This document shows, in pieces, positions 1,540 to 62,195 of a DNA stretch of 64,000 bases; positions within the stretch are counted from its first letter, which is position 1; each line of letters opens with the position of its first letter. Position numbers and translations under genes: made by a program. Source of the stretch: a virus; IMG/VR virus record IMGVR_UViG_3300043754_000046, positions 9,981 through 73,980 of that record; one strand, written 5' to 3'. Below the pieces are notes generated by a model. That model had not been told where the DNA came from. It searched no databases and was given only the letters and a program-made list of their open reading frames with translations.

Positions 1540-1569
1540 AGTCTATGGAAATCCCCTCGCCCGGAGTTA
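1540..1569 (-). promoter_or_regulatory. Putative late promoter A (TAAC-N20-TAGACT), leaderless
   Basis: Minus strand TAACTCCGGGCGAGGGGATTTCCA-TAGACT-GACCTC-ATG; 6 nt separate the -10 hexamer from the ATG at 1533, with no Shine-Dalgarno. Confidence 0.65.
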
Positions 1570-1591
1570 TCCGTCACAGGCGAGGGGATTT
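1549..1591 (-). terminator. Inverted repeat, putative terminator overlapping promoter A
   Basis: 13-bp arms AAATCCCCTCGCC / GGCGAGGGGATTT downstream of the Cys-rich ORF. Confidence 0.5.
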
Positions 1592-1621
1592 CTAACCATC
1601 CGGCGGTAGCGAGCGCCGGAG

Positions 1622-1792
1622 TCAGTAGGGCTTTCCGCAAACGCAGACCTGACCCTTGTGGCATCGGCAGGGGCAGCAGATGGGGATGCAGCCGTTGCAG
1701 AGGTCGTCGCCACACAATTCGAGGTAGAAGCCCCAGCAATTCGAGTCGCAGCCCAGAAAGTCATGCTCCTCTTCAGCCGTCTCAACTACCAT
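1622..1792 (-). CDS. 56-aa Cys-rich microprotein (11 Cys), absent from the ORF track
   Basis: MVVETAEEEHDFLGCDSNCWGFYLELCGDDLCNGCIPICCPCRCHKGQVCVCGKPY; ATG overlaps the upstream TGA (TGATG). Confidence 0.7.
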   Translation of the reverse strand: MVVETAEEEHDFLGCDSNCWGFYLELCGDDLCNGCIPICCPCRCHKGQVCVCGKPY

Positions 1793-2100
1793 CAGAACTT
1801 CAGGTTCTCCATGAGCTGCCGGTTCGCGGCAGCTTCCTGGGCAGCCATCGCGGTGCGCGCGAGTTCCATCTGCACGACCTGGGCCGTCTTCATGGCCTGG
1901 ATGTCCTCGCCGACCTTGTAGCAGGCCATCTGCATGTCATCGACCGTCGCCTCCCGAAGTGGCTTGATCGACTGGTCTATGTTCGGGCTTGCCTGGATCA
2001 TGCCCCCGCCTCGGATGACAACGAGGAAGGCGGTCTCTACCTCTACGAGCTCGGGTGCGTCCTTCTTTTCCTTCAGCTCGTTCAGGTCTACAGCTACCAC
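1792..2100 (-). CDS. Hypothetical protein (about 102 aa)
   Basis: C-terminal part of the 1792..2322 ORF; GTG at 2100 follows GGAGAG just after the upstream stop. Confidence 0.7.
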   Translation of the reverse strand: MVAVDLNELKEKKDAPELVEVETAFLVVIRGGGMIQASPNIDQSIKPLREATVDDMQMACYKVGEDIQAMKTAQVVQMELARTAMAAQEAAANRQLMENLKF

Positions 2101-2111
2101 GATCTTCTCTC

Positions 2112-2624
2112 CTACTTGTAGAGTCCGGCCTTCCACCGACGGTCTTCCATGACCTTCGTGTGCACTGGGCAGAATCGGCAGAGCGTGACGTAGTCGCCCG
2201 CCGCCAGCTCGTACTTGCCCATCCCTGCTTCCTTGCGTTCTGCGGAAGTGTCGGGGATGAGGCGCATCTTTTCCGCGTCGTATTCGTTGCAGTCGGGGTT
2301 CCGGAAGTGCTTCTTCCAGCACGCCATGGCGTCTTCACGGAAGGTGTCGCGCTGGTTGTAGAACTCTGGCTCGAAGCCGGTGCTGCCGCCTCCGGCCTTT
2401 GCCTTGAGCTGCCGCAGGATTTCCCTCCGGGTGGAGGGGCTCTCCCAGTGCTGCTTCTCCACCTTCATGAGCTGGCCGATGTGAGTCTGGCCACTGGGCT
2501 CGGTGTGCTTGCGCTGGATGAGCGCTTCGAGTACGTGGTCGTACTTGGGGTCGCCCTGGTAATCGGGGATTTCCTCCAGCGTCCTGCACATGTCGCAACG
2601 GAGGATACGAATCTCTTCTGCCAT
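2112..2624 (-). CDS. Hypothetical Cys-motif protein
   Basis: CDMC near the N-terminus and CRFC near the C-terminus; leaderless start behind promoter B. Confidence 0.75.
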   Translation of the reverse strand: MAEEIRILRCDMCRTLEEIPDYQGDPKYDHVLEALIQRKHTEPSGQTHIGQLMKVEKQHWESPSTRREILRQLKAKAGGGSTGFEPEFYNQRDTFREDAMACWKKHFRNPDCNEYDAEKMRLIPDTSAERKEAGMGKYELAAGDYVTLCRFCPVHTKVMEDRRWKAGLYK

Positions 2625-2630
2625 GTAGGC

Positions 2631-2660
2631 AGCCTATTCAGCGTGGACGGAATCCTGTTA
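2631..2660 (-). promoter_or_regulatory. Putative late promoter B (TAAC-N20-TAGGCT), leaderless
   Basis: TAACAGGATTCCGTCCACGCTGAA-TAGGCT-GCCTAC-ATG(2624). Confidence 0.65.
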
Positions 2661-2891
2661 GCTCAGGATGTGCACGAGGAACCAGGAAGCAAATCCGAGC
2701 CAGACAACCGCAAAAGTGATGCGCCCTGCCTGAGACTTCACCTGGAACCATGCGCGGATGCGCTCGGAGAGAGTGTCACCCGGCTTGCCATTGCTGACGG
2801 CCCAGGCTTCGACACCCGCACAGACGGCCAGAAGACCGCCCCAAATGACATCAGCAGCCTGCATGTGAACTCCCTCACCGACAGCAGTCAC
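2658..2891 (-). CDS. Small membrane protein
   Basis: Two hydrophobic segments (VIWGGLLAVCAGV; ITFAVVWLGFASWFLVHIL); the start may be the downstream ATG (MQAAD). Confidence 0.7.
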   Translation of the reverse strand: MTAVGEGVHMQAADVIWGGLLAVCAGVEAWAVSNGKPGDTLSERIRAWFQVKSQAGRITFAVVWLGFASWFLVHILS

Positions 2892-2903
2892 GCCCGTAGT
2901 TGA

Positions 2904-2933
2904 AGGCTAGGGTTATCGGCCGGGAATCAGTTA
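2904..2933 (-). promoter_or_regulatory. Putative late promoter C (TAAC-N20-TAGCCT)
   Basis: TAACTGATTCCCGGCCGATAACCC-TAGCCT in the intergenic gap. Confidence 0.6.
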
Positions 2934-2935
2934 GC

Positions 2936-3556
2936 TCAGTACCAGCTATGCGCCTGCCAGAACGACCATGCTGCGCAGGGGCTTCCGTAGGTGGCATTCA
3001 TGTAGGAAATGCCCCATCGGACCTGTGTGGCGCCGTTGGTTCGCCAGTCGGCTCCGGCGGAGGCCATCTTGGAGCCCGGAAGTGCCTGCATGAGGCCGTA
3101 GGCACCCGACGAGGGGTTCGTGGCGTAGACGTTCCAGCCGCTTTCGCGCTCCACGATGTTACTGAAGCAGTTGAACTCGGCAGAGCTCAGGATGGAGCGT
3201 GCGTATGCGGCGGGCGATGAAGAGGCCGGTGGAGCGTACGTGTTGTGTGTTGTCGGCGCGGGCCTCGGCGTGGGGTTGGGCTTTGGCTGGGCAACCGCGT
3301 GCGCCGGTGCCGGAGTTGCCGCGCGCGTCGGCTTGGGAGTGACCTTCGGCTTCGGCGAGGGAGTGGGTGCAGAAATACGAACGACGAGCGACTTCTCCGG
3401 ATACTTTTCCAGGAAGGGCTCGTCGTAGGTCGTAGAAGCGGAGTTTGCCGCAGTGGTATGGCTTGGTGCGGGGTCGGCTGCTGCGGGGGCGCTTGCTACG
3501 AGGGTGGTGCCAATCAGTAGGAGTACGCCTGCGCAGAAGGTGGCCTTGCGGTACAT
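2936..3556 (-). CDS. Secreted lytic transglycosylase (SLT/Rpf-like)
   Basis: Signal peptide (MYRKATFCAGVLLLIGTTLVASAPAAA), Pro/Ala/Thr linker, then IVERESGWN...SSGAYGLMQALPGSKM...QVRWGISYMNATYGSPC, the actinobacterial SLT domain. Confidence 0.85.
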   Translation of the reverse strand: MYRKATFCAGVLLLIGTTLVASAPAAADPAPSHTTAANSASTTYDEPFLEKYPEKSLVVRISAPTPSPKPKVTPKPTRAATPAPAHAVAQPKPNPTPRPAPTTHNTYAPPASSSPAAYARSILSSAEFNCFSNIVERESGWNVYATNPSSGAYGLMQALPGSKMASAGADWRTNGATQVRWGISYMNATYGSPCAAWSFWQAHSWY

Positions 3557-3643
3557 GAACGGTCCTTACGCCGGGGACAGGGTCCTCCGACGCGTCCGGA
3601 CCTTGATCCGGCTTTTCGGAACGTGACAAGAACGTAACAGAGC

Positions 3644-4030
3644 TTATGGGCGGATTACAACCGAGGGGCTCTGGAGGTTGTTGACCTGAACTTCGATGCG
3701 GTCAAGCCGACTTGGCAGTGAGTTGCTGTCTGCGGGGTCCAGGCGGTGTTCCAGGCGGTCCACAGCGTCTCTCAGCGAATGCCCGGAATTCGGGACGAGT
3801 TCATGCTCGATGCGCTCCAGGCGGACCATGACGCCCGGCCGTTCGGGGTGCCCAGGCGAAGAGGACACCCCGTTCCAGTCGTCTATGAACTGATCCACCT
3901 TTTGGAGCATGCGCCGTACCCCACGGAAGATTCGCCAGATGACCGCAAATCCGGCGCCGATGGCAGCAAGCGCCGCGCACCAGATGATCACGGCGTTCAT
4001 TACGTTACTGCCAGTGGGGTATATGTTCAT
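3644..4030 (-). CDS. Membrane-anchored lysis-cassette protein (DUF2746-like)
   Basis: Single N-terminal TM helix, then DDWNG...PGVMVRLERIEHEL.PNSG.SLRDAVDRLE, typical of actinophage genes following lysins. Confidence 0.6.
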   Translation of the reverse strand: MNIYPTGSNVMNAVIIWCAALAAIGAGFAVIWRIFRGVRRMLQKVDQFIDDWNGVSSSPGHPERPGVMVRLERIEHELVPNSGHSLRDAVDRLEHRLDPADSNSLPSRLDRIEVQVNNLQSPSVVIRP

Positions 4031-4038
4031 GCCTCGCC

Positions 4039-4896
4039 TCAGATACCCAGCTTCTTCTTAATGGCGGTCACGTCCTTGGCGATCTGCGCGACCCAGGCGT
4101 TGGTTGCGGCGGTGTGTTCACCAAGGGTGTGCATCGCGCCGTCGATCTGGCTCTTGATAGTGGGCTGCGTGGTCGCGTTCCACAGAGACACCAGCATGTT
4201 GTACGCCTGAACGGACTGCCCGTTCCGGTAGGCCCAGACCTGTTCTGCGGTAGAGCTCGGCACGGTTCCTCCTGAGGAAGTAGGGGGTTGGCTCGGAGCC
4301 GGTGCAGGAGTGGACTGGAAGGATAGCGTCCAGTCCTGGAGGGCTTTGGTGCTGGCCAGCGAGCAGTAGTCCTGGTCAATGGATTTGGCTGCGTACTGGT
4401 GGAAGAGCCATTTGGACTGGATTCCGGGCTGCCCTGCCGGGAGTCCGGCCGTCGCGATCCACAGGAAGTCCTGGTAAAAGGAAGTGGTATCGACGTTCGT
4501 CCAGTAGTCGGTGTTCGCGTAGAGCCCGACGGGGTTGTGCGGAAGCTTGCTCTTGACGTACTTGAGCCAGGCGTCCTTGTACTTTGCCTGGTCCGTCTTT
4601 GATACGCCCGCGTTTGCGGAGTCGTACCCTTCCCAGTCCAGGACGGCCATGTCGCCCGGCTTCCATGCCACCTGGCCAAGGAAGTAGTTGGCCTCTGCCT
4701 GGACCGAGTTACCCATGTGGGGGTAGTGGTACCCGCCCCATACGAGCCCGGCTCCCTTCGCCGTGTTGCGCTGGGAGACCCACTGCGGGTTCACATAGGA
4801 AAGACCTTCAGTGACCTTAGTGAAGGCGAATGACAGTCCGTTGGTAGGCGGCGTTGCGCTCTGGTAGCTTGCCCAGTCCTGCCCGTAGATCCCCAT
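4039..4896 (-). CDS. Endolysin, GH25 muramidase
   Basis: GQDWASYQ, FAFTKVTEG, GGYHY, VLDWEG, WLFHQY...IDQD motifs; start corrected to ATG 4896 (GGAG upstream). Confidence 0.85.
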   Translation of the reverse strand: MGIYGQDWASYQSATPPTNGLSFAFTKVTEGLSYVNPQWVSQRNTAKGAGLVWGGYHYPHMGNSVQAEANYFLGQVAWKPGDMAVLDWEGYDSANAGVSKTDQAKYKDAWLKYVKSKLPHNPVGLYANTDYWTNVDTTSFYQDFLWIATAGLPAGQPGIQSKWLFHQYAAKSIDQDYCSLASTKALQDWTLSFQSTPAPAPSQPPTSSGGTVPSSTAEQVWAYRNGQSVQAYNMLVSLWNATTQPTIKSQIDGAMHTLGEHTAATNAWVAQIAKDVTAIKKKLGI

Positions 4897-4918
4897 GTCA
4901 GTCGCTCCTGCTTCTTCC

Positions 4919-5713
4919 TCAGCCGTAAACGAACTTGCAGAGCAGAGCCCAGCCGCGCGGGCCGATGGCGGGGTCGGAGGCGACACCAGCGTTGTTGAAG
5001 TTGTGCTTCTTGTTGAATCCGGATACGGCTGCCTGCGTCTTCGGTCCGTAGTTGTCGGAGTACGGAGCAGACGGGTCCATCCACTGCGTCTGCTTGAGCA
5101 GGTACTGGAGAGTCTTTGCCGAGGGGATGGCCTTGTTGGGGGCTATGCCCGTCGGAAATGCCGGGGCCTTGCGCGGCGGGAAGGTGTTACCCGGAGGAGG
5201 GGGCGGAGTCGTCTGTCCGAGAATCTGAGCCGCGCGGGCGAGAATCTGCGGACGCTGCGCCTTGATGGGATCCCCGGGGCAGTTGGGGTGGTTTCCCCAG
5301 GCGACGCCTCCCATCCCGTGCCAGCCGAGACCGGAGCCATTCGGGTCGTCTGTGCTCTGAAGGGGGACGTTGTACGTCTTGTGGAGCCAGGCGTAGAGCT
5401 GAGCCGCATTCTCCACCTGCGAGGAAGTCAGGGACTGGCCGGAGTAGCCCTCGTTCTCGATGCTCACCCAGTACCAGTTGCCCTGCATTTCGGCCCAGGC
5501 ACGGTCGTCAGTGTCCACGAGCTGCTTCAGGCCACCGGACTTAGGGTTCAGGAAATGCGCGCTGGCCTGTGACGCCGGATTCGTGAACCACGCCTCGGAT
5601 CCTGCTTCAGTGCCCTGCTGGATGTGGAGAACGAGTCCCTTGTGGGCAAGCATCCCGTTCGGGTGCTCGTTGGGCGTCGGGCCGATCCATTCCGTTCCGG
5701 GCATGCGTGCCAT
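4919..5713 (-). CDS. Endolysin, N-acetylmuramoyl-L-alanine amidase with peptidoglycan-binding domain
   Basis: LVLHIQQG, ASAHFL, SIENEG, GWH...HPNCPG zinc-amidase motifs; C-terminal YGPKTQAAVSGF...IGPRGW PG-binding-like domain. Confidence 0.85.
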   Translation of the reverse strand: MARMPGTEWIGPTPNEHPNGMLAHKGLVLHIQQGTEAGSEAWFTNPASQASAHFLNPKSGGLKQLVDTDDRAWAEMQGNWYWVSIENEGYSGQSLTSSQVENAAQLYAWLHKTYNVPLQSTDDPNGSGLGWHGMGGVAWGNHPNCPGDPIKAQRPQILARAAQILGQTTPPPPPGNTFPPRKAPAFPTGIAPNKAIPSAKTLQYLLKQTQWMDPSAPYSDNYGPKTQAAVSGFNKKHNFNNAGVASDPAIGPRGWALLCKFVYG

Positions 5714-6144
5714 TACGCGGTCTCCTCTGTGTTATTCGATATGCCGAAGTGCTGCTTGATGTCTTCGAGGTGCTGCACTGTCACCCTATTCAGCTTCAGG
5801 GAAAGGCCGTTAGTCACGTAATCCTCCTCGGCTCTGAGGCGGTCGTGCTCGGCTTGGCGATTCTGCGAGAGCAGGAGAATCGGCCCCGTAAATCCGGCTT
5901 GGAAGCTGTACACAAGGTTGAGGAGGACCCACGGGTAGGCGTCCCACATCAGGTGCCAGCCGTGGACGGAGTTGAGGATGATCCACGCAATGGTGAAAGC
6001 GGCCTGGCAGATGATGAATGCCCATGAGCCCATGCCGCTCGCCATGCCGTCGGCGACATGGTCGCCAAGGGAGCGTTCGTCATGCCTTGCCACGTTTGCC
6101 GGATGCAGGTGTCCGTCTGTGGGCATGGGGCTGTTCTTGCTCAC
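5713..6144 (-). CDS. DUF1003-like membrane protein
   Basis: MGSWAFII...W..LN...WDAYPWVLLNLVYSFQAGFTGPILLLSQNRQAEHDR is the DUF1003 pattern. Confidence 0.75.
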   Translation of the reverse strand: MSKNSPMPTDGHLHPANVARHDERSLGDHVADGMASGMGSWAFIICQAAFTIAWIILNSVHGWHLMWDAYPWVLLNLVYSFQAGFTGPILLLSQNRQAEHDRLRAEEDYVTNGLSLKLNRVTVQHLEDIKQHFGISNNTEETA

Positions 6145-6617
6145 TCTGTCTTGCCTCCCTTGAGCTTGCTTGCCGGAACGAACTCGGCAGGAGACTGGAC
6201 ACCGGCCTTCTTCAGGCGGACGGCAAGCCAGAGAGGTTCAGGAAGTACGTGGATGCCGTAGTGAGTTCTGTGATGGTTTGAGCACAAAACTTCTAGATTG
6301 GCCGGTCCTTCGACAAAAGCCTGGAAGTCTTCGTCGGAGTCGAAGTGCAGCCCGAGCATCTTTTCCACCTTCTCCGGGTCCACAGAGGAGATCTCGGAGA
6401 ATTCCACGTATGAGTGGTGAAGCTCGGGCTGCCCGCCGCAGAGCTCGTCATCAACGATGCACTTCCACAGTCCCTGCCTCTTGAGCCTGGCCTTGGCCTG
6501 CTCGAAAAGGTGATAGTGAGGGTCCTGCTCGCGCGGGGCGTGGTCCTCAACGTGCTGCTTCAAATGCAGGGTGAGCATCTGGTCGTGCGCCTTGACGACG
6601 CGCTTCTCGTCGGTCAT
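6141..6617 (-). CDS. Hypothetical protein with HNH-like His/Cys pattern
   Basis: C...C...ELHH...NLEVLCSNHHR...GIH arrangement. Confidence 0.5.
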   Translation of the reverse strand: MTDEKRVVKAHDQMLTLHLKQHVEDHAPREQDPHYHLFEQAKARLKRQGLWKCIVDDELCGGQPELHHSYVEFSEISSVDPEKVEKMLGLHFDSDEDFQAFVEGPANLEVLCSNHHRTHYGIHVLPEPLWLAVRLKKAGVQSPAEFVPASKLKGGKTE

Positions 6618-6619
6618 TT

Positions 6620-6865
6620 CTATCCCTGGTGCCGAATCGGGGAGTGGTAGTGAGTGTCGCCCGAACCCATGCGGTGCGTTCCGTCGGGCTGTTCCTTGTA
6701 ACCGCTCTCGATATAGCCGAAGTTGGTCGGGTACAGATCGGCCCGAGCGTCCTGGGTCGTGGTTTCCACGAAGCCGCCACGGTCCCGGTTGAGCTTCTTG
6801 TACGTGCCGTCCGTCATTCCGTCGTTCAGCGAGCCGTTCATGGACCGCTGGGGCGCGTAGGCCAT
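6620..6865 (-). CDS. Small hypothetical protein (81 aa)
   Basis: ATG 6865 after AGGAG; C-terminal part of the 6620..7285 ORF. Confidence 0.65.
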   Translation of the reverse strand: MAYAPQRSMNGSLNDGMTDGTYKKLNRDRGGFVETTTQDARADLYPTNFGYIESGYKEQPDGTHRMGSGDTHYHSPIRHQG

Positions 6866-6873
6866 TTCGACTC

Positions 6874-7098
6874 CTAGATCTTCTTGGTGCCCTTGCCGTT
6901 CTTGCTGCTCTTGCTGAGGCGGTCGGCCCGGTTGGTGAACTGGTGCTGGGCGAGGGCCGGAGCGACGATCGAGGTCACCCGGCGACCAGCGCCCAGTCCC
7001 CCGGCACCGGGCCTGACGGTGAAAGCCACGTTGTCCCCGGCACCGGCCCGCCGTCGGTCGTCGGCACGCTTGGCTGGCTTCACTGCTCGCTTGGACAT
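6874..7098 (-). CDS. Small basic protein (74 aa)
   Basis: Lys/Arg-rich, tightly packed with neighbours; contains ALAQHQF. Confidence 0.65.
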   Translation of the reverse strand: MSKRAVKPAKRADDRRRAGAGDNVAFTVRPGAGGLGAGRRVTSIVAPALAQHQFTNRADRLSKSSKNGKGTKKI

Positions 7099-7101
7099 CG
7101 G

Positions 7102-7590
7102 TCACCACCTCCAGGTGGGTGCGTACTTGGCCAGGTCGGCTGCCTTCAGGGGCTGCGCGGTGCCGGGCGTCGCATTGGATCCGGGCATGCTCGGAACATC
7201 GGCGGGCCTGCCCACAGGAGCCCAGCGCTTCTGGCCGTTGGCCTGGCGGCGCAGGCCGCTCGTCAAGTCCAGCCAGCTCGGCCACTCGTAGGCCTGCCGA
7301 TCGAGCCGCTCGCCCTTGTGCACACCCCGGGTGTAAGGGCGGTCGTAGCGGGTGTTGGCGCCATAGGACTGGAGGAGCTTGTCCTGGTGCCGGTCGTTGG
7401 GTACCGACCCGAGGTAGCCGTCGGGGTACTGGGCCTCCGGTGTCCTGCCGGACATCATCATCCGGCGCTCGTCCAGAATGTTGCGCGCGCCGACCACCGG
7501 GAAACCGCCGCCTCCCCCGCTCACCGTGGAGCCCGGCTGCGCACTGCCCAGTGGGGGCGTGTACGAGAGGGTCGTATTGGTCATGGTCAA
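7102..7590 (-). CDS. Hypothetical protein (162 aa)
   Basis: Start overlaps the upstream stop; contains QYPDGYLG and GVHKGERLD. Confidence 0.7.
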   Translation of the reverse strand: MTMTNTTLSYTPPLGSAQPGSTVSGGGGGFPVVGARNILDERRMMMSGRTPEAQYPDGYLGSVPNDRHQDKLLQSYGANTRYDRPYTRGVHKGERLDRQAYEWPSWLDLTSGLRRQANGQKRWAPVGRPADVPSMPGSNATPGTAQPLKAADLAKYAPTWRW

Positions 7591-7769
7591 CCGCTCCTGG
7601 TGGTGAGCTGGGGCGCGCTGCCCTTGACGGTGATCATGGTGGTGGTCTGGCTGCCGGGGCTTGTGCTGCCGCCCTGACCGTTGGAGGACACCTGGCCCGT
7701 ATTGGCACCTGTCGGCGTCGACGTGTTGGTGCCGAACTGTGCGGGCTGGAGGTTGGCAGAGGCCGTCAT
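7587..7769 (-). CDS. Small Thr/Gly/Ser-rich protein (60 aa)
   Basis: ATG 7769 immediately after the upstream stop; begins MTASANLQPAQF. Confidence 0.55.
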   Translation of the reverse strand: MTASANLQPAQFGTNTSTPTGANTGQVSSNGQGGSTSPGSQTTTMITVKGSAPQLTTRSG

Positions 7770-7770
7770 G

Positions 7771-8085
7771 TCAGGCCCCCTGCCCGTAGTCGCGGTAGCA
7801 GTCGAAGGCGGCCGTGCTGTGGCTGGCGCCAATCGGCTTGACCCGTCGACCAACTCCACTGGCCTCGGGGCAGTTCGAGTAGTCCTTGTACACCTGGACA
7901 CCGCCAACGTGGCCGTAGCGCTCCTGGACCTGCTCGCGCGGGACGGCCGTCTTTTCGGGCGCGGTCTCCTTGTTGCGCGGAGATCGGGGCATCAGCATGC
8001 CCTTCTCGGCCGGACGGTAGTTCACGTGCACGGCACTCTCGCCCATGGTGGGAAACTGGCCGCTGCTGAGATTGCGACTCGACAT
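7771..8085 (-). CDS. Hypothetical protein (104 aa)
   Basis: ATG 8085 after GAGGAG; begins MSSRNLSSGQF. Confidence 0.7.
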   Translation of the reverse strand: MSSRNLSSGQFPTMGESAVHVNYRPAEKGMLMPRSPRNKETAPEKTAVPREQVQERYGHVGGVQVYKDYSNCPEASGVGRRVKPIGASHSTAAFDCYRDYGQGA

Positions 8086-8164
8086 GTTTTCTCCTCGTAG
8101 TGGCACCTGAAGGCCTGGGATCTACGATGGAGGGTTACGAGCGGCCAGAGAGTACGCCGATTTC

Positions 8165-8194
8165 AGTGTAGGTTCTTCACTTCCCGGCGCATTA
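8165..8194 (-). promoter_or_regulatory. Putative late promoter D (TAAT-N20-TACACT)
   Basis: TAATGCGCCGGGAAGTGAAGAACC-TACACT; the TAA doubles as the stop codon of the SpoVS-like gene. Confidence 0.55.
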
Positions 8195-8476
8195 GTCGCG
8201 GGTGACGCGGTGGAGGAGTCCGGAGACTTCCTTGTCGTCCGGCATCGTCGTCGTGAAAAACCCGAAATTGGTCTTGAGACGTATAGCCTGCTTGGCGGCG
8301 TGGCCCTCTGCCACTGCGATACCCTTGCCTGCCTGCCCGATGGCTCCGTGGCCCACTGCCCGGATCTCCACGGTCTTCCCGTCCTCGATCGCTCGGGCAA
8401 TAGCGGCTCCGAGCTCCTTGGTCGGCGTGTTGCTGCTCACCCTGAAGACAACCGTGTTTCCGTCGCTGGTTCCCAT
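8192..8476 (-). CDS. spoVS: SpoVS-like (stage V sporulation protein S, Alba-like fold) protein
   Basis: VFRVSSNT..KELGAAIA...VEIRAVGHGAIGQAGKGIAVA parallels the SpoVS pattern LKVS..S....AGA.A......EIQAIGAGA.NQA.K..AIA; typical length. Confidence 0.75.
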   Translation of the reverse strand: MGTSDGNTVVFRVSSNTPTKELGAAIARAIEDGKTVEIRAVGHGAIGQAGKGIAVAEGHAAKQAIRLKTNFGFFTTTMPDDKEVSGLLHRVTRD

Positions 8477-8513
8477 GTATTGCTCCCAACATTTTTACGA
8501 GTGATCTCTGTTG

Positions 8514-8543
8514 AGAGTAGAGATTGCAGCGACCGCCCTGTTA
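8514..8543 (-). promoter_or_regulatory. Putative late promoter E (TAAC-N20-TACTCT)
   Basis: TAACAGGGCGGTCGCTGCAATCTC-TACTCT, just downstream of a terminator hairpin. Confidence 0.65.
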
Positions 8544-8559
8544 ATCTGGGGTGAATACG

Positions 8560-8598
8560 GAAAGCCCCTCCCAGTGACTAATCCTGGCAGGGGCTTTC
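8560..8598 (-). terminator. Putative terminator ending the recA operon
   Basis: Arms GAAAGCCCCT / AGGGGCTTTC immediately after the EndoVII stop. Confidence 0.65.
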
Positions 8599-8599
8599 A

Positions 8600-9022
8600 T
8601 TATTTGTTTCTGAGCAGCTCCCGTGCTGGGGGGCGGTGCAGGTAGTCCCGGGCACGGTTGAAAAATTCGGGATCGTCTCTCGCGTGCCCAAGAAGGTTGT
8701 TGCAAACGCGACAAAGAAGCCCTCTCACTTCGCCGGTTTTGTGATCGTGATCGACGGAGAGCTTCCTTGACGCCCCGGTGGCTCGCTGGCAGATTGCGCA
8801 CTTACCGCCCTGGCCCTTGTAGATGACGTCGTAGTCGCCCTCGCCGAGCCCATAGACGTTCTGCACCCGCTTTTCATGGGAGGCCTGCTTGCGCCGTCCC
8901 TTCTCCATTCGCCAGTGAGTGGCACACCGAGGACCCGGGTGCGGGGCCGGACGGCGCTGCCGAGCGGGAGGTGGAAAGCCACCCCACTCAGTCACGCAGT
9001 CCTTACATACGGGCCGACTCAC
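8600..9022 (-). CDS. Endonuclease VII-like nuclease
   Basis: QGGKCAIC...LSVDHDHKTGEVRGLLCRVCNNLLG; GTG start overlaps the upstream stop. Confidence 0.9.
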   Translation of the reverse strand: MSRPVCKDCVTEWGGFPPPARQRRPAPHPGPRCATHWRMEKGRRKQASHEKRVQNVYGLGEGDYDVIYKGQGGKCAICQRATGASRKLSVDHDHKTGEVRGLLCRVCNNLLGHARDDPEFFNRARDYLHRPPARELLRNK

Positions 9023-9729
9023 TGCTGAGCCACCGAAACAAGAGGCCACTCCGGCGCGCACACGATCGTGTCGTCGCCGTTCTGCCGCCGCAGGTACGAC
9101 TGGAGGGAGAGTGCCTGCTCCCTGGCCCACCGGATCTGCCGCACGAACAAGTCCCTCAGCGGGATCTGGAGCGCGTATTCGCCGTCGATCATGCGGTAGG
9201 CGAGTTGTGCTGCGGCCACTGCGTCAGCGCCCGCGTCATGGGCATCGGTGAGCTCGATCTCATACAGCCTGCACAGATCGCTGAGGGTGCGCTTGCCGGG
9301 GCGGTAGCGGTCGATGGCTTTGTCGATGACGTACGGGTCGATGACGGCCGCGAAATTCACGTCCACACGCTCTTCGAGAGGCTTCAGGTCGTACCTACGC
9401 AGCTCCCGGTCCAGGACGGTGAAGTCATACCGCCCGTTGTAAGCAACCATGGGAACACCGTCGTTCAGGACGCGCACCACGTTCTGGGCTATCTCTTCGA
9501 TGGCCTCAGGGCCAGTCGGCGCGTCGGCCACGTCCGCGTCCCGGATTCCGTGGATGGCGGTGTTCTCCTCAGGGATCGTGATGCCCGGGTTCACCAACCG
9601 TGTGGATACCCAGTCAGCGTTGCCCAACGTCACTCCACACAAGGCGAACTGGACGATGCGTGCCTCATCCCATTCTTTGTGCGTGGTCTCCAAGTCGAAG
9701 CCCACGAGGGGGCCTTCCCACCACATCAT
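9019..9729 (-). CDS. DEDDh 3'-5' exonuclease (DnaQ/Pol III epsilon-like)
   Basis: GFDLETT (ExoI), AYNGRYDF (ExoII), AHDAGADA (ExoIII). Confidence 0.9.
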   Translation of the reverse strand: MMWWEGPLVGFDLETTHKEWDEARIVQFALCGVTLGNADWVSTRLVNPGITIPEENTAIHGIRDADVADAPTGPEAIEEIAQNVVRVLNDGVPMVAYNGRYDFTVLDRELRRYDLKPLEERVDVNFAAVIDPYVIDKAIDRYRPGKRTLSDLCRLYEIELTDAHDAGADAVAAAQLAYRMIDGEYALQIPLRDLFVRQIRWAREQALSLQSYLRRQNGDDTIVCAPEWPLVSVAQQ

Positions 9730-12994: not shown

Positions 12995-13949
12995 TGGTGG
13001 TCTCCTCCTTCGGCTGGCAGTACTTGCAGCCGCCTCTCGGGCACTTGGGGGGCATGGCGCGGAAGGTGGGGTCGAGTGCCTGCCGAATTTCCTCAGCGGA
13101 TTCCAGCAGTGGCTCGATGATGGACTCGCGGCGCTTGACCACGAATTCCTTGGTGGCCTGGGTGAATTTCGACTCGTAGATGTAGACAACCTTGTCGTAA
13201 TCCAGGCCGAGAAGCTTGCAGATGTAGAGGTATGTTTGCCCCTGCTTCTGGTGCGAGGAGAAAGGCCGGTTGATGCCCCGCCACAATCCTTCATAGTCAA
13301 TCAGGGACTTGCCGTCGTCGGTCTTATGCGTGTGCGCTCGAAGAAGTTCAGGCTCTTCCATGCGCAACGTTCCAGCACCGACCGTCTTGAATTCCATCAG
13401 TGCTTGATGCCGTGGAACTCCGCCGTCTGCACTCCCAGATATCAGAAGCTGCTTCTCAGCGTTGAGAGGGATCTCGTCGTACCGGATGTGCCTGCTGTTG
13501 CAGTCAGGACATCTCTGGGGTGACAAATCCGTCCATTCGATCTCACAGTTGAGGCAATACCAGTCTCCCCAGAGTTCTCCCCTTTCCCAGAGCCACGTCT
13601 GCCACTTGTGGTGGACTTCGTGGCCGTGCTGGAAAATATTGAGGGACTGGAAGTTGAAGGATTCCTTGTCCGGTAGTTCTCCGGCCCTGACCTTCTTGAT
13701 TCGCTGGTAGGTGGCCCTGGGACACCAGTCTCCGTGCGACATCTCGCTCGGGTGGATGATGTCCTGTCGGCGGGAGAAGTCCCGGGCGTTCTTGTCGACC
13801 ACGTACTTGCTCGTCGGCCCGAGGATCAGGGATTCATCCAGCTTCCGGCCCTCGGCCAGAACCTTCAAGCCGCCAGTGGGCTTGAGTCCTCCGCGCCGCT
13901 TGACGGTTCCTTTTCGGGCTTTGGGGTCGGCGGGTGCCAATACCACCAC
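12864..13949 (-). CDS. Cas4-like PD-(D/E)XK exonuclease
   Basis: HPSEM..WCPR, GHEVH, SGSADG, MEFKT, QGQTY and terminal CPRGGCKYC; start approximate; no CRISPR array in the window. Confidence 0.8.
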   Translation of the reverse strand: MVVLAPADPKARKGTVKRRGGLKPTGGLKVLAEGRKLDESLILGPTSKYVVDKNARDFSRRQDIIHPSEMSHGDWCPRATYQRIKKVRAGELPDKESFNFQSLNIFQHGHEVHHKWQTWLWERGELWGDWYCLNCEIEWTDLSPQRCPDCNSRHIRYDEIPLNAEKQLLISGSADGGVPRHQALMEFKTVGAGTLRMEEPELLRAHTHKTDDGKSLIDYEGLWRGINRPFSSHQKQGQTYLYICKLLGLDYDKVVYIYESKFTQATKEFVVKRRESIIEPLLESAEEIRQALDPTFRAMPPKCPRGGCKYCQPKEETTSEESPAAARRRGTAGRGTEDGTTARRPGTGLRREAPRRSPRAS

Positions 13950-16043: not shown

Positions 16044-16086
16044 ACACTACAGAGTTGACCAACTATCTGGCAACTAGTTGGTCAAC
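16044..16086 (-). promoter_or_regulatory. Operator/promoter repeat, copy 1 (heads the recA operon)
   Basis: Minus strand GTTGACCAACTAG-TTGCCA-GATAGTTGGTCAACTCTG-TAGTGT. Confidence 0.8.
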
Positions 16087-46113: not shown

Positions 46114-46274
46114 TCACGCTCCTCCTCTCCCATTCCCACATGGTCTTCGCCGCCCAGTAGCGCCGCTGCCTCGCTGTCATCCCCCGCAAATCGGCAAGTG
46201 TCCAGCCGGGGAATTCCTTGGCGATGAGACCGATTTCGGCGTACGCCAGCTTCGGGTCAATCGATGCGAAAGAG
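46097..46274 (-). CDS. Second tail chaperone segment, probably reached by a +1 frameshift
   Basis: AYAEIGLIAKEFPGWTLADLRGMT.RQRRYW; in the +1 frame relative to the chaperone, with no RBS-linked start near the conserved part. Confidence 0.6.
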
Positions 46275-49897: not shown

Positions 49898-50020
49898 CGC
49901 TCACCCCTCTCCAGGCAAAGAGATAGCCTGAATCGGCGTGTTCGCAACTCCAGGCATTAATTCCTCACAGGGCGGGAGATCATCACTCCCAGAATGCCAC
50001 GTGGAAGGGAAACCCTTATA

Positions 50021-50053
50021 GAAAGAGAAAACCCGGCCCACAAGGGGCCGGGT
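50021..50053 (-). terminator. Rho-independent terminator after the spike genes
   Basis: ACCCGGCCC-CTTGT-GGGCCGGGT followed by TTTCTCTTTC. Confidence 0.75.
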
Positions 50054-50202
50054 GAGTTGCGGGTCAGCCACCGGCCTGCCATGCCCGCCGAACAGCCTTG
50101 AATGCTGTTCCTGCCACAGCCGAGGAAAGGGGAGAACCTCGGCACATCGACTGTATCCAACTGGTTCCTAGGGGTGTTACCCACGTCCCCTTCGAGGTTT
50201 CG

Positions 50203-52011
50203 TTAAGCAGGCTCGACAAGCATCCACATGACCGTGCTCGTCTCAGTGTTACTGGACGAGTTGATCGTGATGGAAGTCCCGGCAGCGACCGTGAAGGACA
50301 GTTGCCCGAGGGTCCCGGCCGCCGCCTGCCGGGAGAGAATCACCCGCGTAGTGGCCGTCACGCTGGTGTTGGGCACCGTCACAGTTCCAGCCGCCAACGT
50401 GGCCACACCCATGCGCGCGTTGGCGCCCTCCTTGATTGCCAGACCGCCACCAGCACTTCCAGCGATGATGGCCTTAGCGGTATTCGACCACGAAGTGAAG
50501 GCGCCGTTGGACTGACCGCCATTATTGATCGACAGGTACGAGTCGGTCTGGATTCCGCCGACGCCGGTCCGATACCAGAGGCCAGCATCAGGAGCTGCCG
50601 TGCCGGACCCGAGAACCATCAGACCGTCAGCACGCAGGATGACGCGCTGATTGGTATCGCCGACAACGCTGCCCTGCAAGATATTGCTGGCGGCAGCCGT
50701 ATGCGTCGCAGATGCTGTCCCAGACCAGTTCCAAGCGGCAGTAGCGGCGATTGTCGGTGCGGCAGTGGTACCGGTGGCGGTCACCACGTCCGGGCCGATA
50801 AGCACCTTTATGTTGGTGCCATCATTGAAAATCGCCTGAGTTGCCGCCTGTACATACGCCTGATTCAGACTGAAGGACGTCGTAGCAGCAGCGACAGATA
50901 TTCCATACTGCGGACTGGACGTGCCGCTCCCGTTGTCGTCCACCCCCGGGAAGACCGTCACGGCGCTGAGGACGATCGGGGTAGTGGCTCCGTGGGAGGA
51001 GAATCCGGCGTAACCGCCGCCGCCTGTACCACCATTACGGCCGTCGCGACGCAGCATGAGCCCGTCGAAAATGAAGGGAGGAGTACCAGTGGCGTCCACG
51101 TGGAGGCCATCCCAGCCGTTTCGGTCCGTCGAGCACCCACTCATAACGAGTGCACCGGAACCCTGACCTGAGCCCCAGGAACCCGTCAAGTAATAGCCGT
51201 AGTTGCCGTTCCACTCAGCTCGGCATCCGATCAATTGACTGTTCGCCAAATTGACGAGATTGAAGCCATTCGCATAGCAACCGATGGCCTGACAGTCGAA
51301 CATGGTGATATCGGTCATCTGGTTCAGCGCGTACCCATGGCCGTGGCAGTTGTCGACCATAACGGAGTACAGGCGCCATGAGTACGGGTACGCGCCCGCA
51401 TCCGTGTCCGTGTAGAGGCCGTTACCCGACATGTAGCGGATTGTGACTTGCCGCAGGACAACATTCTGCACGTTGCCCTTGCATTGAATTCCGTCGATCG
51501 CGCTCGCCGTGTACGCCGAACCATCAATCATCAGATCGAAAATGCGATGCTCAGCGGGGGTCGCACTGTAACCTCCGGTCGCGGCATCCTCGATGCGGAT
51601 AACTGCTACGCCGGAAAAACTGGCCAACGGCTGGATGTAGCATGCCGGGTTAGTAAGCCCGGCCGCCACCATCATATTTGAATGAGAGCCCACCAGCGTG
51701 ATCGCCGGGGGCAATACCAGGGGAGCCGATGTGCGGTATATACCAGCAGGAAGCAAGACCCTGCCGCCAACAGGGCATGCGTTGAGAGCGGACTGGATTG
51801 CCGCAGTATCGTCAGTGACTCCATCGCCTTTGGCGTGGTAATCGGTCTTCACATTGATGACAGGGAACTTGGCCATAGCGTTCGCGATGTCCGTTTGTTC
51901 CTGAGAGATCTCCACCTTGTTCTGGTCGAGATTCGTCAAGTCCTGATTGATAACCGTATCCCAGCCCAACTGACCGTGAACCGGGAGCGTAACGTCTCCA
52001 CTCATACTCAC
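50203..52011 (-). CDS. Virion spike/appendage with a pectate-lyase-like beta-helix
   Basis: NVKTDYHAKGDGVTDDTAAIQSAL...GIY, followed by parallel beta-helix repeats. Confidence 0.8.
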   Translation of the reverse strand: MSMSGDVTLPVHGQLGWDTVINQDLTNLDQNKVEISQEQTDIANAMAKFPVINVKTDYHAKGDGVTDDTAAIQSALNACPVGGRVLLPAGIYRTSAPLVLPPAITLVGSHSNMMVAAGLTNPACYIQPLASFSGVAVIRIEDAATGGYSATPAEHRIFDLMIDGSAYTASAIDGIQCKGNVQNVVLRQVTIRYMSGNGLYTDTDAGAYPYSWRLYSVMVDNCHGHGYALNQMTDITMFDCQAIGCYANGFNLVNLANSQLIGCRAEWNGNYGYYLTGSWGSGQGSGALVMSGCSTDRNGWDGLHVDATGTPPFIFDGLMLRRDGRNGGTGGGGYAGFSSHGATTPIVLSAVTVFPGVDDNGSGTSSPQYGISVAAATTSFSLNQAYVQAATQAIFNDGTNIKVLIGPDVVTATGTTAAPTIAATAAWNWSGTASATHTAAASNILQGSVVGDTNQRVILRADGLMVLGSGTAAPDAGLWYRTGVGGIQTDSYLSINNGGQSNGAFTSWSNTAKAIIAGSAGGGLAIKEGANARMGVATLAAGTVTVPNTSVTATTRVILSRQAAAGTLGQLSFTVAAGTSITINSSSNTETSTVMWMLVEPA

Positions 52012-54674: not shown

Positions 54675-54677
54675 GGC

Positions 54678-55571: not shown

Positions 55572-55601
55572 AGTTTATGAGTTGCTAGCCAAGATTCAGT
55601 A
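55572..55601 (-). promoter_or_regulatory. Putative late promoter G (TACT-N20-TAAACT)
   Basis: TACTGAATCTTGGCTAGCAACTCA-TAAACT upstream of the neck gene. Confidence 0.45.
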
Positions 55602-57210: not shown

Positions 57211-58495
57211 TCAGTTGGTCTGGCTGATGACGACAGCCTGGTCAGTAATGAGACCGAGGCCCCAGATGGCATACCAGGCCAGCGCGTGCTCGCGGCCGAA
57301 GTCGAGCACGCCACCATCGCGGAGCTCCACCGGAAGGCTGATAGCGTGACCGAAGGCATTGTCACCGATCGAGATGGCTTCATAAACCGTCGCCGGGTTA
57401 GAAGAGTTCCCGTTGGAGATCTGCGTGACCTGCGTAGTCTCGACAAAGATCTGATCGTTGATCCTGCCGATTTCGCCGATCATAAACTGGCCCGGCTGCG
57501 CGTACTTGGTGACCTCGATCCAAGAAGGATCTTCACGCAGAACGCGCGACTGATGCGGGTGAACAAAGGTCACGTAGGAGTCCCCAATTCTCGGGACGTT
57601 CTTCGTCGCCAGTGTCTCGGTGATATCGAGCGTGAGGCCGGTGGTAAACCCGTAGGCACCGGTCAGAGCCGAAGTCGAGGCCGCCGCAGAACCGAGGTCA
57701 TAAGGCGACAGCGGAGTACGCGAAGACTCCGTCAGGGCCATCTTGTTGTACCCGTAAAGTACCGAGCTTGCCTGGAGAAGAGTGTCACGACTCTGCTGGT
57801 CGAGCCACATGGCCATGTTGCGCCCGAGCAGCCGGGAAGCCGTCGCCATAACGTCGTCAAAGGACGAGTTAAGCAGGAGCTCCGAGACGGCGATTGCCAT
57901 TCCGTGCTCCGCGACCGTAATCGAGAACATGGAAGCAGCAAGCGCATTGGTCTGCATGCGAACACCTTCAACGAGCTGGCTCGCCGAGGGCAGGTTGTTG
58001 TAACGGGCGAAGTTGACGGTCAGACCCGGCTGGACACCCAATTCAGTCTTCTTGCAGGCTGTTACCCCGTACCCGAAGGTACGTGGACCGGTCATTTCTG
58101 CCGGTCTCCTACGGTTTTCCATACCGTAGGCCCAGACTATATCTTCATCTCCAGTTCTGACCTACTGTCCACCTAAAGGTCAGTCCTGTTGGAGATGCCT
58201 CCCGTGTAGTCGTTACGGAGTCCCAGGTGTGGGTTCCCTCGGTATTCCCCGTTGCTGCGATCGAGTGCTACGAGGAGGAGGGGTTCACCGATACAGGGTG
58301 GTTTTCACTCGCCGGTCACCCGACGAGGCGGCCAATTCAAACCGCGAACTGCTCGAAGCGCAGAATGGGCATGCTCTGGAAGAGAATTTCCTTCGACCAG
58401 ATGGTCTGGATGACCGGGGTGAGCTGAGAGTTCGCCCCGGAGTAGTTGGTCGGGTTGGCACTCAGGAACTGAGTGCCGGTGATAGCGCTAGCCAT
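57211..58495 (-). CDS. Major capsid protein, two exons (58495-58341 and 58054-57211; 332 aa spliced)
   Basis: Exon 1 MASAITGTQF...LRFEQFA follows AGGAGG; joining GT|C gives FAV-KKTELGVQPGLTVNF; exon 2 has EHGMAIAVSELL, VHPHQ, GEIGRI, DFGREH.LAWY capsid motifs. Confidence 0.9.
58055..58340 (-). ncRNA. Group I self-splicing intron, 286 nt, no ORF
   Basis: 5' exon ends in U, intron ends in G; P1 GCGGU/GCCGC; P2 with GUGA loop; P4 UCGGU/ACCGA; P7 GACUA/UAGUC within ACGACUA and AAGAUAUAGUC; P8 CAUCUCCA/UGGAGAUG; three P9 hairpins. Confidence 0.93.
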
Positions 58496-61015: not shown

Positions 61016-61179
61016 GTCGTCGCCTCTTCGTCAGCGGATCCCGATAACGGCGAGTGCAACGAGATGTGATCAACGATTCGCCAGGTTTCATCCTCGCATG
61101 GGTTATTGGTGTTCTGGTAAGCTCACTACCCAAGGCTCTGGTGGACCGCTCGAAGACGTTACTAGAGCTCAGATACAGA

Positions 61180-61204
61180 AAGGCCCCCGGAATCCGGGGG
61201 CCTT
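61180..61204 (-). terminator. Rho-independent terminator
   Basis: AAGGCCCCCGG-ATT-CCGGGGGCCTT followed by TCTGTAT on the minus strand. Confidence 0.7.
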
Positions 61205-61218
61205 CTCTATGCCACGGA

Positions 61219-61704
61219 TCAGGTGACGGTCCAGGCAGACGAGGCAGCGCTGGGCACATTGGTGACAGCGCCGACTGCGATGACAACGGCGGTGTCCGAG
61301 TGACCAACAGTCAGACCAGGCACGTTCACGGTGGTCGCGTTGGTGCCTGCGGTCACGCTGGTGACGGCGCCGGTCGTACCGTCGGTCACGTTGACCTTGT
61401 AGCCCTGGCTCGGCAGATTGGCGCCGGGGGTCCAGGTGACCTTGCCCGTACCTGAAGTACCAGAGGTAGCGAGAGCAACAGCCGTCGGCTGGGACGGCGG
61501 CGTGAACCGCTCAGGGGCGTTAACGCTCTGAGAGGTGTTGTTGCCATAGGCCTGGGGCGGCATCTGGCTCACGTCGTAGCCGAGCGCGCTCATCTGGGTC
61601 GTCCAGGCGGTCTCGGTGTTCGTGTAGCTCGTAATGGGCGGGGTGCCGTCATTCTGAGACGACCCCGACGAGGGCGGGGTGTAGCCCGGCCAGGGAGTAC
61701 CCAT
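61219..61704 (-). CDS. Fibronectin type III domain protein
   Basis: PSQPTAV...VTWTP...GYKVNV...V.VPGLT.G...V.AV...SAASSAW.V; ATG 61704 after AGGA. Confidence 0.75.
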   Translation of the reverse strand: MGTPWPGYTPPSSGSSQNDGTPPITSYTNTETAWTTQMSALGYDVSQMPPQAYGNNTSQSVNAPERFTPPSQPTAVALATSGTSGTGKVTWTPGANLPSQGYKVNVTDGTTGAVTSVTAGTNATTVNVPGLTVGHSDTAVVIAVGAVTNVPSAASSAWTVT

Positions 61705-61741
61705 GTTTCCTGCTTTCTCTAAGCGTTGGGGATTCCGGTGA

Positions 61742-62134
61742 TCAGTCCCTGACGACTGCCGGAGCGATGCGTGCCATGTGCGTGCCGGGGCGGTCGACCT
61801 GCTCATAGTGCCGCTCTGCGATCGGACTGACGCCGTGCGCGAATTCCGCGAGGAAAGTCGGCGCCTCCGTCCAGGCCGCGCTCCCCGGGTGAGCGCGCTC
61901 GTTCATGGTCTCCTGGGCGGTCTTGATGTAGACGTTGGCGTTGTGGTTGTCACGGGCGCCGGTCTGATAACCCTGTCCAGCTCCAGTCATGAAATCGCCC
62001 GCGACACTGGCCGCGAGATTTTCCTGGAACCGCAGCGGACCTCGGCCGCCCGGCGTCGGGGATGCATGGGACTGCTCGTAATAGGTGTCGGCCCGCTCCG
62101 GGAATCGCGGCGTGGGGCCCAGGTTTCCAGCCAT
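61742..62134 (-). CDS. Hypothetical protein (130 aa), probably virion-associated
   Basis: AGGAG RBS; downstream of late promoter F. Confidence 0.7.
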   Translation of the reverse strand: MAGNLGPTPRFPERADTYYEQSHASPTPGGRGPLRFQENLAASVAGDFMTGAGQGYQTGARDNHNANVYIKTAQETMNERAHPGSAAWTEAPTFLAEFAHGVSPIAERHYEQVDRPGTHMARIAPAVVRD

Positions 62135-62165
62135 GGGTGCTCCTAAGGAAGACGTCTCCTATTTC

Positions 62166-62195
62166 AGGCTAAGGAGGGTTTCCTTTTCCCTGTTA
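62166..62195 (-). promoter_or_regulatory. Putative late promoter F (TAAC-N20-TAGCCT)
   Basis: TAACAGGGAAAAGGAAACCCTCCT-TAGCCT. Confidence 0.65.

Follow-up and report, generated by a model that had tools for sequence, protein, structure and literature searches.

A putative phage-family-specific promoter class with a TAAC upstream box in temperate Streptomyces myophages

The stretch of DNA analysed here (the window, 64,000 nucleotides) comprises bases 9981–73980 of the 109,317-bp virus record IMGVR_UViG_3300043754_000046, which is rated 100% complete by CheckV and whose source is a 109-kb temperate Streptomyces myophage. Across the whole 109-kb genome, the word TAAC stands exactly 20 nucleotides (nt) ahead of a TANNNT hexamer at 12 places on the minus strand, where 0.19 would be expected. 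These TAAC sites very probably constitute a functional class of promoters, and taken together the observations make it likely that the class is specific to a phage family and serves the packaging, head, tail, lysis and terminal accessory genes of ~100–110-kb temperate Streptomyces myophages and prophages. An earlier note on the window had proposed that eight sites form a promoter-like class of their own, fixed in strand and spacing, in which a host-type -10 is paired with a -35 box foreign to the host, and that central proposal is borne out by the analyses below.

In a gapped motif scan of the kind that the earlier note had proposed, all 256 four-letter words were placed at 16 gaps (12–27) upstream of every TANNNT, and TAAC at gap 20 ranked first. 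The runners-up were its own one-base shifts, followed by words from the operator repeats described below, and no outstanding word emerged on the plus strand or in the related phage GiJojo. Rather than being equally frequent on both strands, TAAC-N20-TANNNT was entirely absent from the plus strand of the genome. Spacing is equally strict: TAAC never preceded TANNNT at gaps 15–19 or 21–24, and 12 of the 98 TAAC words on the minus strand lie at the 20-nt distance. The host-like word TGAC (458 copies on the minus strand) showed no peak and no enrichment at this register. When the second box was narrowed to TANNCT and gaps of 8–35 were compared on the minus strand, TAAC occurred eight times at gap 20 and at most once at any other gap. 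Sense-strand intergenic DNA alone held 8 matches against 0.12 expected at one gap, and the density of TANNCT itself was there ~7 times its value in coding DNA and double that on the antisense strand of those gaps. Of the 12 sites, nine fall in intergenic DNA and another two stand close before the next start, at 69 and 104 nt.

The earlier note had described the class by a looser consensus, exemplified by eight minus-strand 30-mers, each of which is present where it had been placed. That consensus, TAMY-N20-TANNCT, matched the window ten times on the minus strand and once on the plus strand, where dinucleotide shuffles gave an expectation of 0.79 in all, but its reversed-pattern control was noisy (7 matches against 12 real ones in the whole genome) and the test was therefore refined to the TAAC form. 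The TACY half of the consensus did not survive, since TACY-N20-TANNCT occurs twice at gap 20 and zero to two times elsewhere, which is chance level. Five of the eight sites are canonical (1540, 2631, 2904, 8514 and 62166), two are variants (8165 and 39010) and one (55572) is dropped. The two variants are plausible degenerate members despite their lack of statistical support because true TAAC sites occupy the same places in two integrated prophages (G002 and G005). Four further sites lie in the window, at 5783, 47231, 50150 and, doubtfully, 36208 (Table 1). The caution that TAA doubles as a stop codon at two sites was justified: it ends gene 2658–2864 at site 2631 and the SpoVS-like gene at site 8165.

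Alignment of the phage's own sites with those of its relatives yielded, for the refined motif TAAC-N20-TANNNT, the consensus (R)(C)TAAC(A)(G/C)-N18-TA(S)(S)CT. Bases that the search did not force are biased as well: in all 22 sites (own and relatives) position 6 of the upstream box and position 3 of the -10 hexamer are G or C, and position 5 of the hexamer is C in 17. The -10 hexamer TAnnnT is present at every site by construction; it has the form of the -10 boxes of the phage's canonical, host-type promoters, and its S-S-C bias at positions 3–5 matches their TAGGCT. Read as a TAACAG hexamer, the upstream box leaves a spacer of 18 nt, like that of the canonical promoters, and read as xTAACx it leaves 19 nt. 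Streptomyces promoters carry a TANNNT -10 and a BTGACN -35, the -35 boxes being variable (PMC8780764). The core of the phage box is TAAC at every site and conforms to neither TTGACN nor BTGACN, and a simple sigma-70 consensus scan of window positions 1–9500 returned no match.

Table 1 Putative TAAC promoter sites, host-type promoters and the candidate factor gene. Positions are those of the window unless marked as genome; SD, Shine–Dalgarno sequence.
Position	Strand	Boxes or product	Context
1540–1569	-	TAACTC-N18-TAGACT	Before nucleotidyltransferase-like gene 547–1533 (ATG 1533)
2631–2660	-	TAACAG-N18-TAGGCT	Before gene 2112–2624 (ATG 2624)
2904–2933	-	TAACTG-N18-TAGCCT	39 nt upstream of gene 2658–2864 (SD GAGGGAG)
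5783–5812	-	TAACGG-N18-TAGGGT	69 nt upstream of amidase (endolysin) gene 4919–5713
8165–8194	-	TAATGC-N18-TACACT (variant)	79 nt upstream of gene 7771–8085 (104-aa gene after SpoVS)
8514–8543	-	TAACAG-N18-TACTCT	37 nt upstream of SpoVS-like gene 8192–8476
36208–36237	-	TAACTG-N18-TACCCT	Deep in 928-aa tail-fibre gene, 2.4 kb from next start
39010–39039	-	TACCCG-N18-TAAACT (variant)	69 nt upstream of baseplate-J gene 37441–38940
47231–47260	-	TAACGG-N18-TAGCCT	In tail-tube gene 47161–47733, 104 nt upstream of gene 46257–47126
50150–50179	-	TAACAC-N18-TACAGT	Just past gene 50203–52005; next gene starts 49897
55572–55601	-	TACTGA-N18-TAAACT	Unsupported by statistics or relatives; at most -10-only
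62166–62195	-	TAACAG-N18-TAGCCT	31 nt upstream of head-module gene 61742–62134 (SD AGGAG)
genome 74307–74336	-		Outside window; 30 nt before terminase gene
genome 76610–76639	-	TAAC-N20-TANNNT	Outside window
genome 4780–4809 (L053)	-	TAACAG-N18-TAGGGT (perfect)	Beside integrase; aimed at 51-aa open reading frame convergent with integrase
16044–16073	-	TTGCCA-N18-TAGTGT	Host-type, with GTTGACCAACT/AGTTGGTCAAC inverted repeats; heads operon with recA-like, resolvase and WhiB genes
22925–22954	-	TTGCCA-N18-TAGGCT	Host-type, with operator repeats; heads recombination/replication operon
31176–31205	-	TTGCCA-N18-TAGGCT	Host-type, with operator repeats; start of replication block
genome 77454–77482		TTGACG-N17-TAGGCT	Fourth canonical promoter
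13865–14254	-	WhiB-like protein, 129 aa (PF02467)	C-X23-C-X15-C-X5-C, GVWGG turn, basic tail

As the earlier note had observed, the sites lead into structural, lysis and accessory genes, and the motif heads none of the replication operons. The TAAC-served set comprises the terminase and small genes before it, the head-module gene, the gene before the tail sheath, the gene after the tail tube, the baseplate gene (via a variant site), the SpoVS-like gene, the amidase endolysin, genes adjoining an SLT-domain protein and the terminal nucleotidyltransferase operon. Sites stand directly upstream of terminase and at morphogenetic and lysis genes, as late-operon promoters of temperate phages do. Window positions 8543–36208, which contain the replication and recombination genes and three operator-bearing promoters, hold no TAAC site. 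All four canonical promoters of the phage are embedded in GTTGACCAACT/AGTTGGTCAAC inverted repeats, which are probably repressor operators, and they head the replication and recombination operons and a MazG-like gene.

The assignment of the phage draws on its tail sheath, which is 44–46% identical to those of the Streptomyces myophages GiJojo, LuckySocke, Alone3 and BRock, and on a gene order that agrees with GiJojo. Almost all genes between 6.5 and 89.4 kb of the genome lie on the minus strand, with plus-strand arrays at both ends. A large serine recombinase (integrase) gene at genome 2976–4640 marks the phage as temperate, and relatives are found integrated in host contigs, the boundary being visible as a step in GC content from 0.62–0.67 to 0.70–0.73. 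Given this lifestyle, promoters of lysis and structural genes must be off in lysogens, and from gene content together with temperate lifestyle we infer that the TAAC-served genes are expressed late. The family is large, its members being integrated in Streptomyces chromosomes or present as separate 107–115-kb contigs (L048, L056–L071, G002–G006; L056 is from S. luteogriseus GCA_044332475.1). Members also occur in Nonomuraea and Herbidospora, and in metagenome-assembled genomes labelled Saccharibacteria and Gemmatimonadales, where the contigs are probably mis-binned.

The position of two sites relative to start codons agrees with a promoter function. At 1540 and 2631, the -10 hexamer ends 6 nt before an ATG (1533 and 2624, respectively) that lacks an SD (TAGACTgacctcATG, TAGGCTgcctacATG), and at the homologous genes of relatives it likewise ends 6–7 nt before the ATG. 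Streptomyces has many leaderless mRNAs, for which AUG is the preferred start (PMC8780764). An ATG without an SD is translatable only if transcription starts at its A, and a -10 is therefore needed exactly there; the mRNAs of genes 547–1533 and 2112–2624 would be leaderless, as predicted from this spacing. Most sites lack a hairpin. The TAAC of site 1540 lies within the loop of a 14-bp hairpin (1548–1592), and TAAC is also found in hairpin loops at the terminase-upstream site and in three relatives (L058, L066 and L069). Site 8514 stands downstream of a G+C-rich hairpin that follows gene 8600–8908. A small Cys-rich open reading frame (...CGDDLCNGCIPICCPCRCHKGQVCVCGKPY*) that gene calling had overlooked occupies window positions ~1600–1770 on the minus strand and stops at a TGA ~60 nt before the TAAC box of site 1540; it is also present in L056, upstream of the nucleotidyltransferase promoter.

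Motif, gap and strand are all kept at homologous places, both in metagenomic relatives and in Streptomyces prophages. In four contigs whose portal is ~82% identical (L011, L013, L014 and L048), the homologue of site 62166 keeps TAACAG, TACGCT and an 18-nt spacer of changed sequence. The terminase-upstream site is kept in L013, L044, L046, L047 and L048, within a conserved G+C-rich hairpin followed by a T-tract; the TAACAG in its loop does not vary, and the stem shows weak covariation, judged from only four sequences. L049, a 107,980-bp relative (GC 0.68) with a 72% identical amidase, carries three sites within 20.7 kb. All three are sense-strand sites with a gap of 20, and one of them stands 38 nt before the SpoVS gene, against 37 nt in the window. 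Three sites each are present in S. luteogriseus, S. tubercidicus and Streptomyces sp. NRRL F-4489 (L056, L057 and L058), homologous to 8514, to the leaderless sites 2631 (6–7 nt) and 1540 (7 nt) and to the integrase-side site. Homologues of 8514 precede SpoVS in L049 (5614), L056 (5003), L057 (4755), G002 and G005; that of 2631, TAACAG-N18-TAGGCT, lies 6–7 nt before the ATG in L056 and L057; and those of 1540, TAACAC or TAACAG followed by N18 and TAGCGT or TAGCTT, lie 7 nt before the ATG in L058, L063–L067 and L069. Summed over 17 bacterial-genome loci aligned on the nucleotidyltransferase, the sense strand holds 26 matches at gap 20 against 0–3 at other gaps.

The five complete integrated prophages (G002–G006) carry 5–6 sites each on the late strand and at most one on the other. 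A site lies 9–103 nt before the terminase homologue in all five, and the others precede homologues of SpoVS, the 104-aa gene, baseplate-J, a 170-aa gene and the nucleotidyltransferase. At the place of variant 8165, after SpoVS, G002 and G005 have TAACAC-N18-TAAACT, while L056 and L057 keep just a -10-like TAGACTGAAA. About 70 nt upstream of the baseplate-J homologue, the place of variant 39010, G002 has TAACAC-N18-TAAGCT and G005 TAACGC-N18-TAAACT. The motif is absent from GiJojo, which is ~45% identical in structural proteins. Among relatives with a named non-Streptomyces host or bin, only three had loci of sufficient length in the 17-locus scan; Nonomuraea gave one gap-20 TAAC match, and the loci of Herbidospora, one Gemmatimonadales-binned contig and Streptomyces mangrovi gave none. 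Searches of viral contigs with genes 2112–2624 and 8192–8476 returned no close relatives, and the portal query returned no match among bacterial genome contigs. A lysin-domain query returned 25 loci of unchecked relatedness, most of them without the motif, which serve as informal negative controls only.

Five Streptomyces genomes of 7.2–9.6 Mb each (~42 Mb) were searched for TAAC-N20-TASSNT. Each held 5–8 matches, compared with 4–15 (42 in total) for the reversed control, and 19 of the 31 matches fall inside the five prophages, which amount to ~0.5 Mb; 17 of these are on the late strand. Only 12 matches remain in the ~42 Mb outside the prophages, and the host therefore has no regulon of the TAAC type. 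The phage specificity claimed earlier is thus sustained, the motif being essentially absent from host chromosomes. As a positive control for host promoters, TTGAC-N20-TASSNT was modestly enriched (34 against 22) and always outside prophages; given this modest result, we do not claim that TAAC and host TGAC share an identical register.

Several proteins were considered as the factor that might read TAAC. The leading candidate, already named by the earlier note, is the WhiB-like protein encoded at 13865–14254, within the operon behind the host-type promoter 16044–16073. Full-length orthologues (43–46% identity) lie inside all five prophages and score far above host paralogues, and yet we would put its chance of being the factor no higher than low. 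The WhiB of phage TM4, which inhibits host whiB2, is reported to be the sole phage WhiB studied for its role in infection (PMC8612146), and a WhiB-based switch would consequently be new. The earlier note's other suggestion, a phage sigma factor encoded outside the window, came to nothing in the complete record, where Sigma70_r2 and r4 (PF04542, PF04545) had no match at E ≤ 1. A single weak match to PF08281 (r4_2; 14.7 bits) falls in the GerE/LuxR helix-turn-helix of a 340-aa TrmB-like protein, whose predicted fold (pLDDT 82) consists of a TrmB-like winged helix, a long helix, a PLD-like domain and then the LuxR helix-turn-helix. This regulator is missing from four of the five motif-bearing prophages and has many paralogues in host genomes; its fold and its absence from those four rule it out as a hidden sigma or universal factor.

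A conserved MerR-like protein (21924–22430) also occurs in BRock-type phages. A MerR-type distortion of the spacer, conceivable for the 19-nt reading, was rejected, as the spacers have no conserved dyad and the protein is shared with the GiJojo/BRock group, of which GiJojo is motif-less. The 141-aa protein of the recombination module (22427–22852) is conserved in all five prophages; of the conserved non-structural proteins, no other was found to be missing from cultured BRock-type phages. It had no Pfam or PHROG match. At genome 84076–85832 (L054:10096–11852), a WhiJ-like triad comprises an HTH_31/DUF5753 regulator, a DUF397 protein and an HATPase_c_2 anti-sigma-like kinase, and a version of it is found in most prophage relatives; the XRE-type protein among them is encoded on the opposite strand and could plausibly act as the lysogeny repressor.

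In the scheme we favour, host RNA polymerase with its principal sigma factor (HrdB type) would read the -10, and TAAC, occupying the -35 position, would be read by or through a phage factor produced from the operator-controlled middle operons. Such a factor would work either by giving sigma region 4 a new target or as an activator of the class-II type, and the TAAC-served genes would stay off in the lysogen and come on later than the replication genes. That the class depends on a phage factor and is late seems to us slightly the better bet. In its most specific form, the scheme would be an actinobacterial case of sigma appropriation, with a phage protein, our best guess being the WhiB-like (Wbl) one with its unusual cluster motif C-X23-C-X15-C-X5-C, re-targeting HrdB region 4 from TTGAC to TAAC; this form is speculative and, in our estimate, unlikely.

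Several observations count against this scheme. A single base separates TAAC from the TGAC core of the host, the geometry falls inside the host range, and the unaided host holoenzyme could conceivably recognise the sites. At the nucleotidyltransferase gene, L056 and L057 retain the -10 and the leaderless spacing without TAAC, and the box is thus not indispensable at every homologous promoter. The placement of TAAC in hairpin loops at 1540 and upstream of terminase means that conservation could partly reflect terminator function. Finally, none of the WhiB, MerR-like and LuxR/TrmB-like candidates tracks the motif exclusively: WhiB is found in GiJojo and BRock too, and GiJojo, the one checked, has no motif.

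A rival account is that these are ordinary HrdB promoters requiring no phage factor, the host tolerating TAAC as a one-base variant of its TGAC -35 core, with timing imposed only by repression of upstream operons, read-through and terminators. The -10 fits the host TANNNT, host -35 boxes are variable, the phage's canonical promoters share the -10 form, and the -10 alone has been retained at the nucleotidyltransferase gene of two relatives. Further likenesses to HrdB promoters are the two boxes, the 18–19-nt spacer and the frequent leaderless starts (PMC8780764). The phage core is nevertheless TAAC and not TGAC, the box having A, and in no case G, as its third base at the 12 own sites and at every relative site from the TAAC search, with no TGAC peak beside it; the class is confined to one phage family and hardly occurs in host chromosomes (12 matches in 42 Mb, where the control had 42). 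Lysis and structural promoters that escaped regulation would, moreover, be expected to harm a prophage, judging from the integrase and the integrated relatives. We regard this account as fairly unlikely. A highly divergent phage sigma that escapes Pfam and reads both boxes is less probable still. Strict spacing of two short, non-palindromic boxes is a classic sigma signature, and phage sigmas are often very divergent, as in T4 gp55 and SPO1 gp28 and gp34. The complete record, however, has no Sigma70_r2 or r4 match at E ≤ 1, the weak r4_2 hit is the LuxR helix-turn-helix of a regulator that most of the prophages lack, and the -10 is host-like, in the same form as at the canonical promoters.

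A signal unrelated to promoters, such as a terminator loop, a processing site or a binding site for packaging or replication, is very improbable in our view. It would accommodate the TAAC in the loop of the conserved T-tract hairpin upstream of terminase and the loops at 1540 and in the three relatives, but hairpins are missing at most sites, the second box matches the -10 consensus perfectly and stands at leaderless distance from ATGs without an SD, and the spacers vary in sequence and structure while their length is fixed, which fits recognition of DNA on one face. Chance, helped by AT-rich gaps and TAA stops, could be invoked for the noisy degenerate control, the two TAA stop codons and the chance-level TACY sites; for the TAAC sites it is already refuted by the single gap and single strand of the 12 matches, by the intergenic excess and by the many independent relatives, and its probability is negligible.

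Among known systems, the T4 middle promoters combine a MotA box with a host -10 through AsiA/MotA sigma appropriation. The TAAC class resembles them in that a host-type -10 is kept, a phage box at a fixed distance, here exactly 20 nt, replaces the -35, and the genes lie downstream of early host-type promoters; it differs in the sequence and position of the box, in the lack of any known AsiA or MotA homologue, in its actinobacterial host and in the temperate nature of the phage. Mu C and P2 Ogr are activators of late promoters in temperate phages. Activator-dependent late promoters upstream of terminase genes of temperate phages are likewise controlled by the RinA/ArpU/LtrC superfamily (PMC3753634, PMC3152322). 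The TAAC class shares with these the position directly upstream of a packaging gene, the combination of a -10 with a non-canonical -35 region, a box at fixed distance from it and the temperate phage, but it is present in 5–12 copies per genome rather than at one late operon promoter, and its box is short and non-palindromic with sigma-like strict spacing and with no homologous activator identified. As no homologous factor is present, we do not claim membership in the T4, Mu or RinA types of system.

Two further promoter types invite comparison. Wbl-dependent promoters of actinobacteria are exemplified by WhiB7 and by WhiA/WhiB, and they resemble the TAAC class in lacking a canonical -35; the phage itself has a WhiB-like gene in a middle operon, and we know of no TAAC-type element described for any Wbl. 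Promoters of extracytoplasmic function (ECF) sigma factors have an AAC-containing -35 and a CGT-type -10. The AAC triplet in the upstream box is common to both, whereas the phage -10 is TA(S)(S)CT, the spacing is longer, and a Pfam search found no ECF or other sigma gene.

Some individual sites call for comment. Site 5783 sits within the 3' end of gene 5713–6144 and is absent from that place in L049 and L056; like site 47231, it is a possible internal promoter. Site 36208 is probably a chance match. Site 50150 lies ~100 nt upstream of an intrinsic terminator (50020–50052, minus strand) in a 305-nt gap, and the two together are a candidate for a ~120-nt small RNA or for an attenuating leader before the tail genes; an Rfam search of the region 50020–50179 gave no match. 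The integrase-side site at genome 4780 may serve an excision factor that is expressed late, or may give rise to antisense RNA across attP. This promoter and its small open reading frame recur at the very end of the S. luteogriseus prophage, beside host DNA (L056:16258–16493), and also upstream of a resolvase gene in L057. A -10-like hexamer, TAGTCT, is present at window positions 58134–58139, and Rfam at its gathering threshold detected no intron family in the window.

Beyond the window, the plus strand has elements of another kind. Three Pistol self-cleaving ribozymes (Rfam RF02679; 62–70 bits, gathering threshold 34.5) at L054:17865–17933, L055:137–203 and L055:428–496 fill the first three spacers of a plus-strand array of small genes, at genome ~91.8–92.5 kb. 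About 25 more spacers of ~95 nt follow between small genes at genome ~92.6–109.2 kb (L055), sharing an acceptor-like stem with a T-arm-like GGTTCGAATCC...GGGCAC, a small hairpin (CCCGAAATCGGG) and the SD GGAAAGGGGAG. ARAGORN identified no tRNA and Rfam no family in these spacers, which may serve as tRNA-like punctuation for the processing of a polycistronic early transcript. In three relatives (L012, L009 and L010), up to five copies of a promoter-like word, cgcgtgTAGTCTctacggagtcccc, occur on the minus strand, opposite the portal gene, and may represent an early-promoter class of that clade.

The transcription programmes of Streptomyces phages are almost unmapped. The motif offers a sequence rule that splits the genome of a widespread prophage family into operator-controlled middle operons and genes served by a phage-only promoter class. 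It aids annotation, pointing to leaderless starts, internal promoters and one candidate small transcript, and it provides a handle for finding the factor that reads TAAC. Should the class prove factor-dependent, it would supply orthogonal, tightly off promoters for Streptomyces engineering; and if sigma appropriation were true, a whole family of myophages would have in common a promoter code left unused by the host chromosome.

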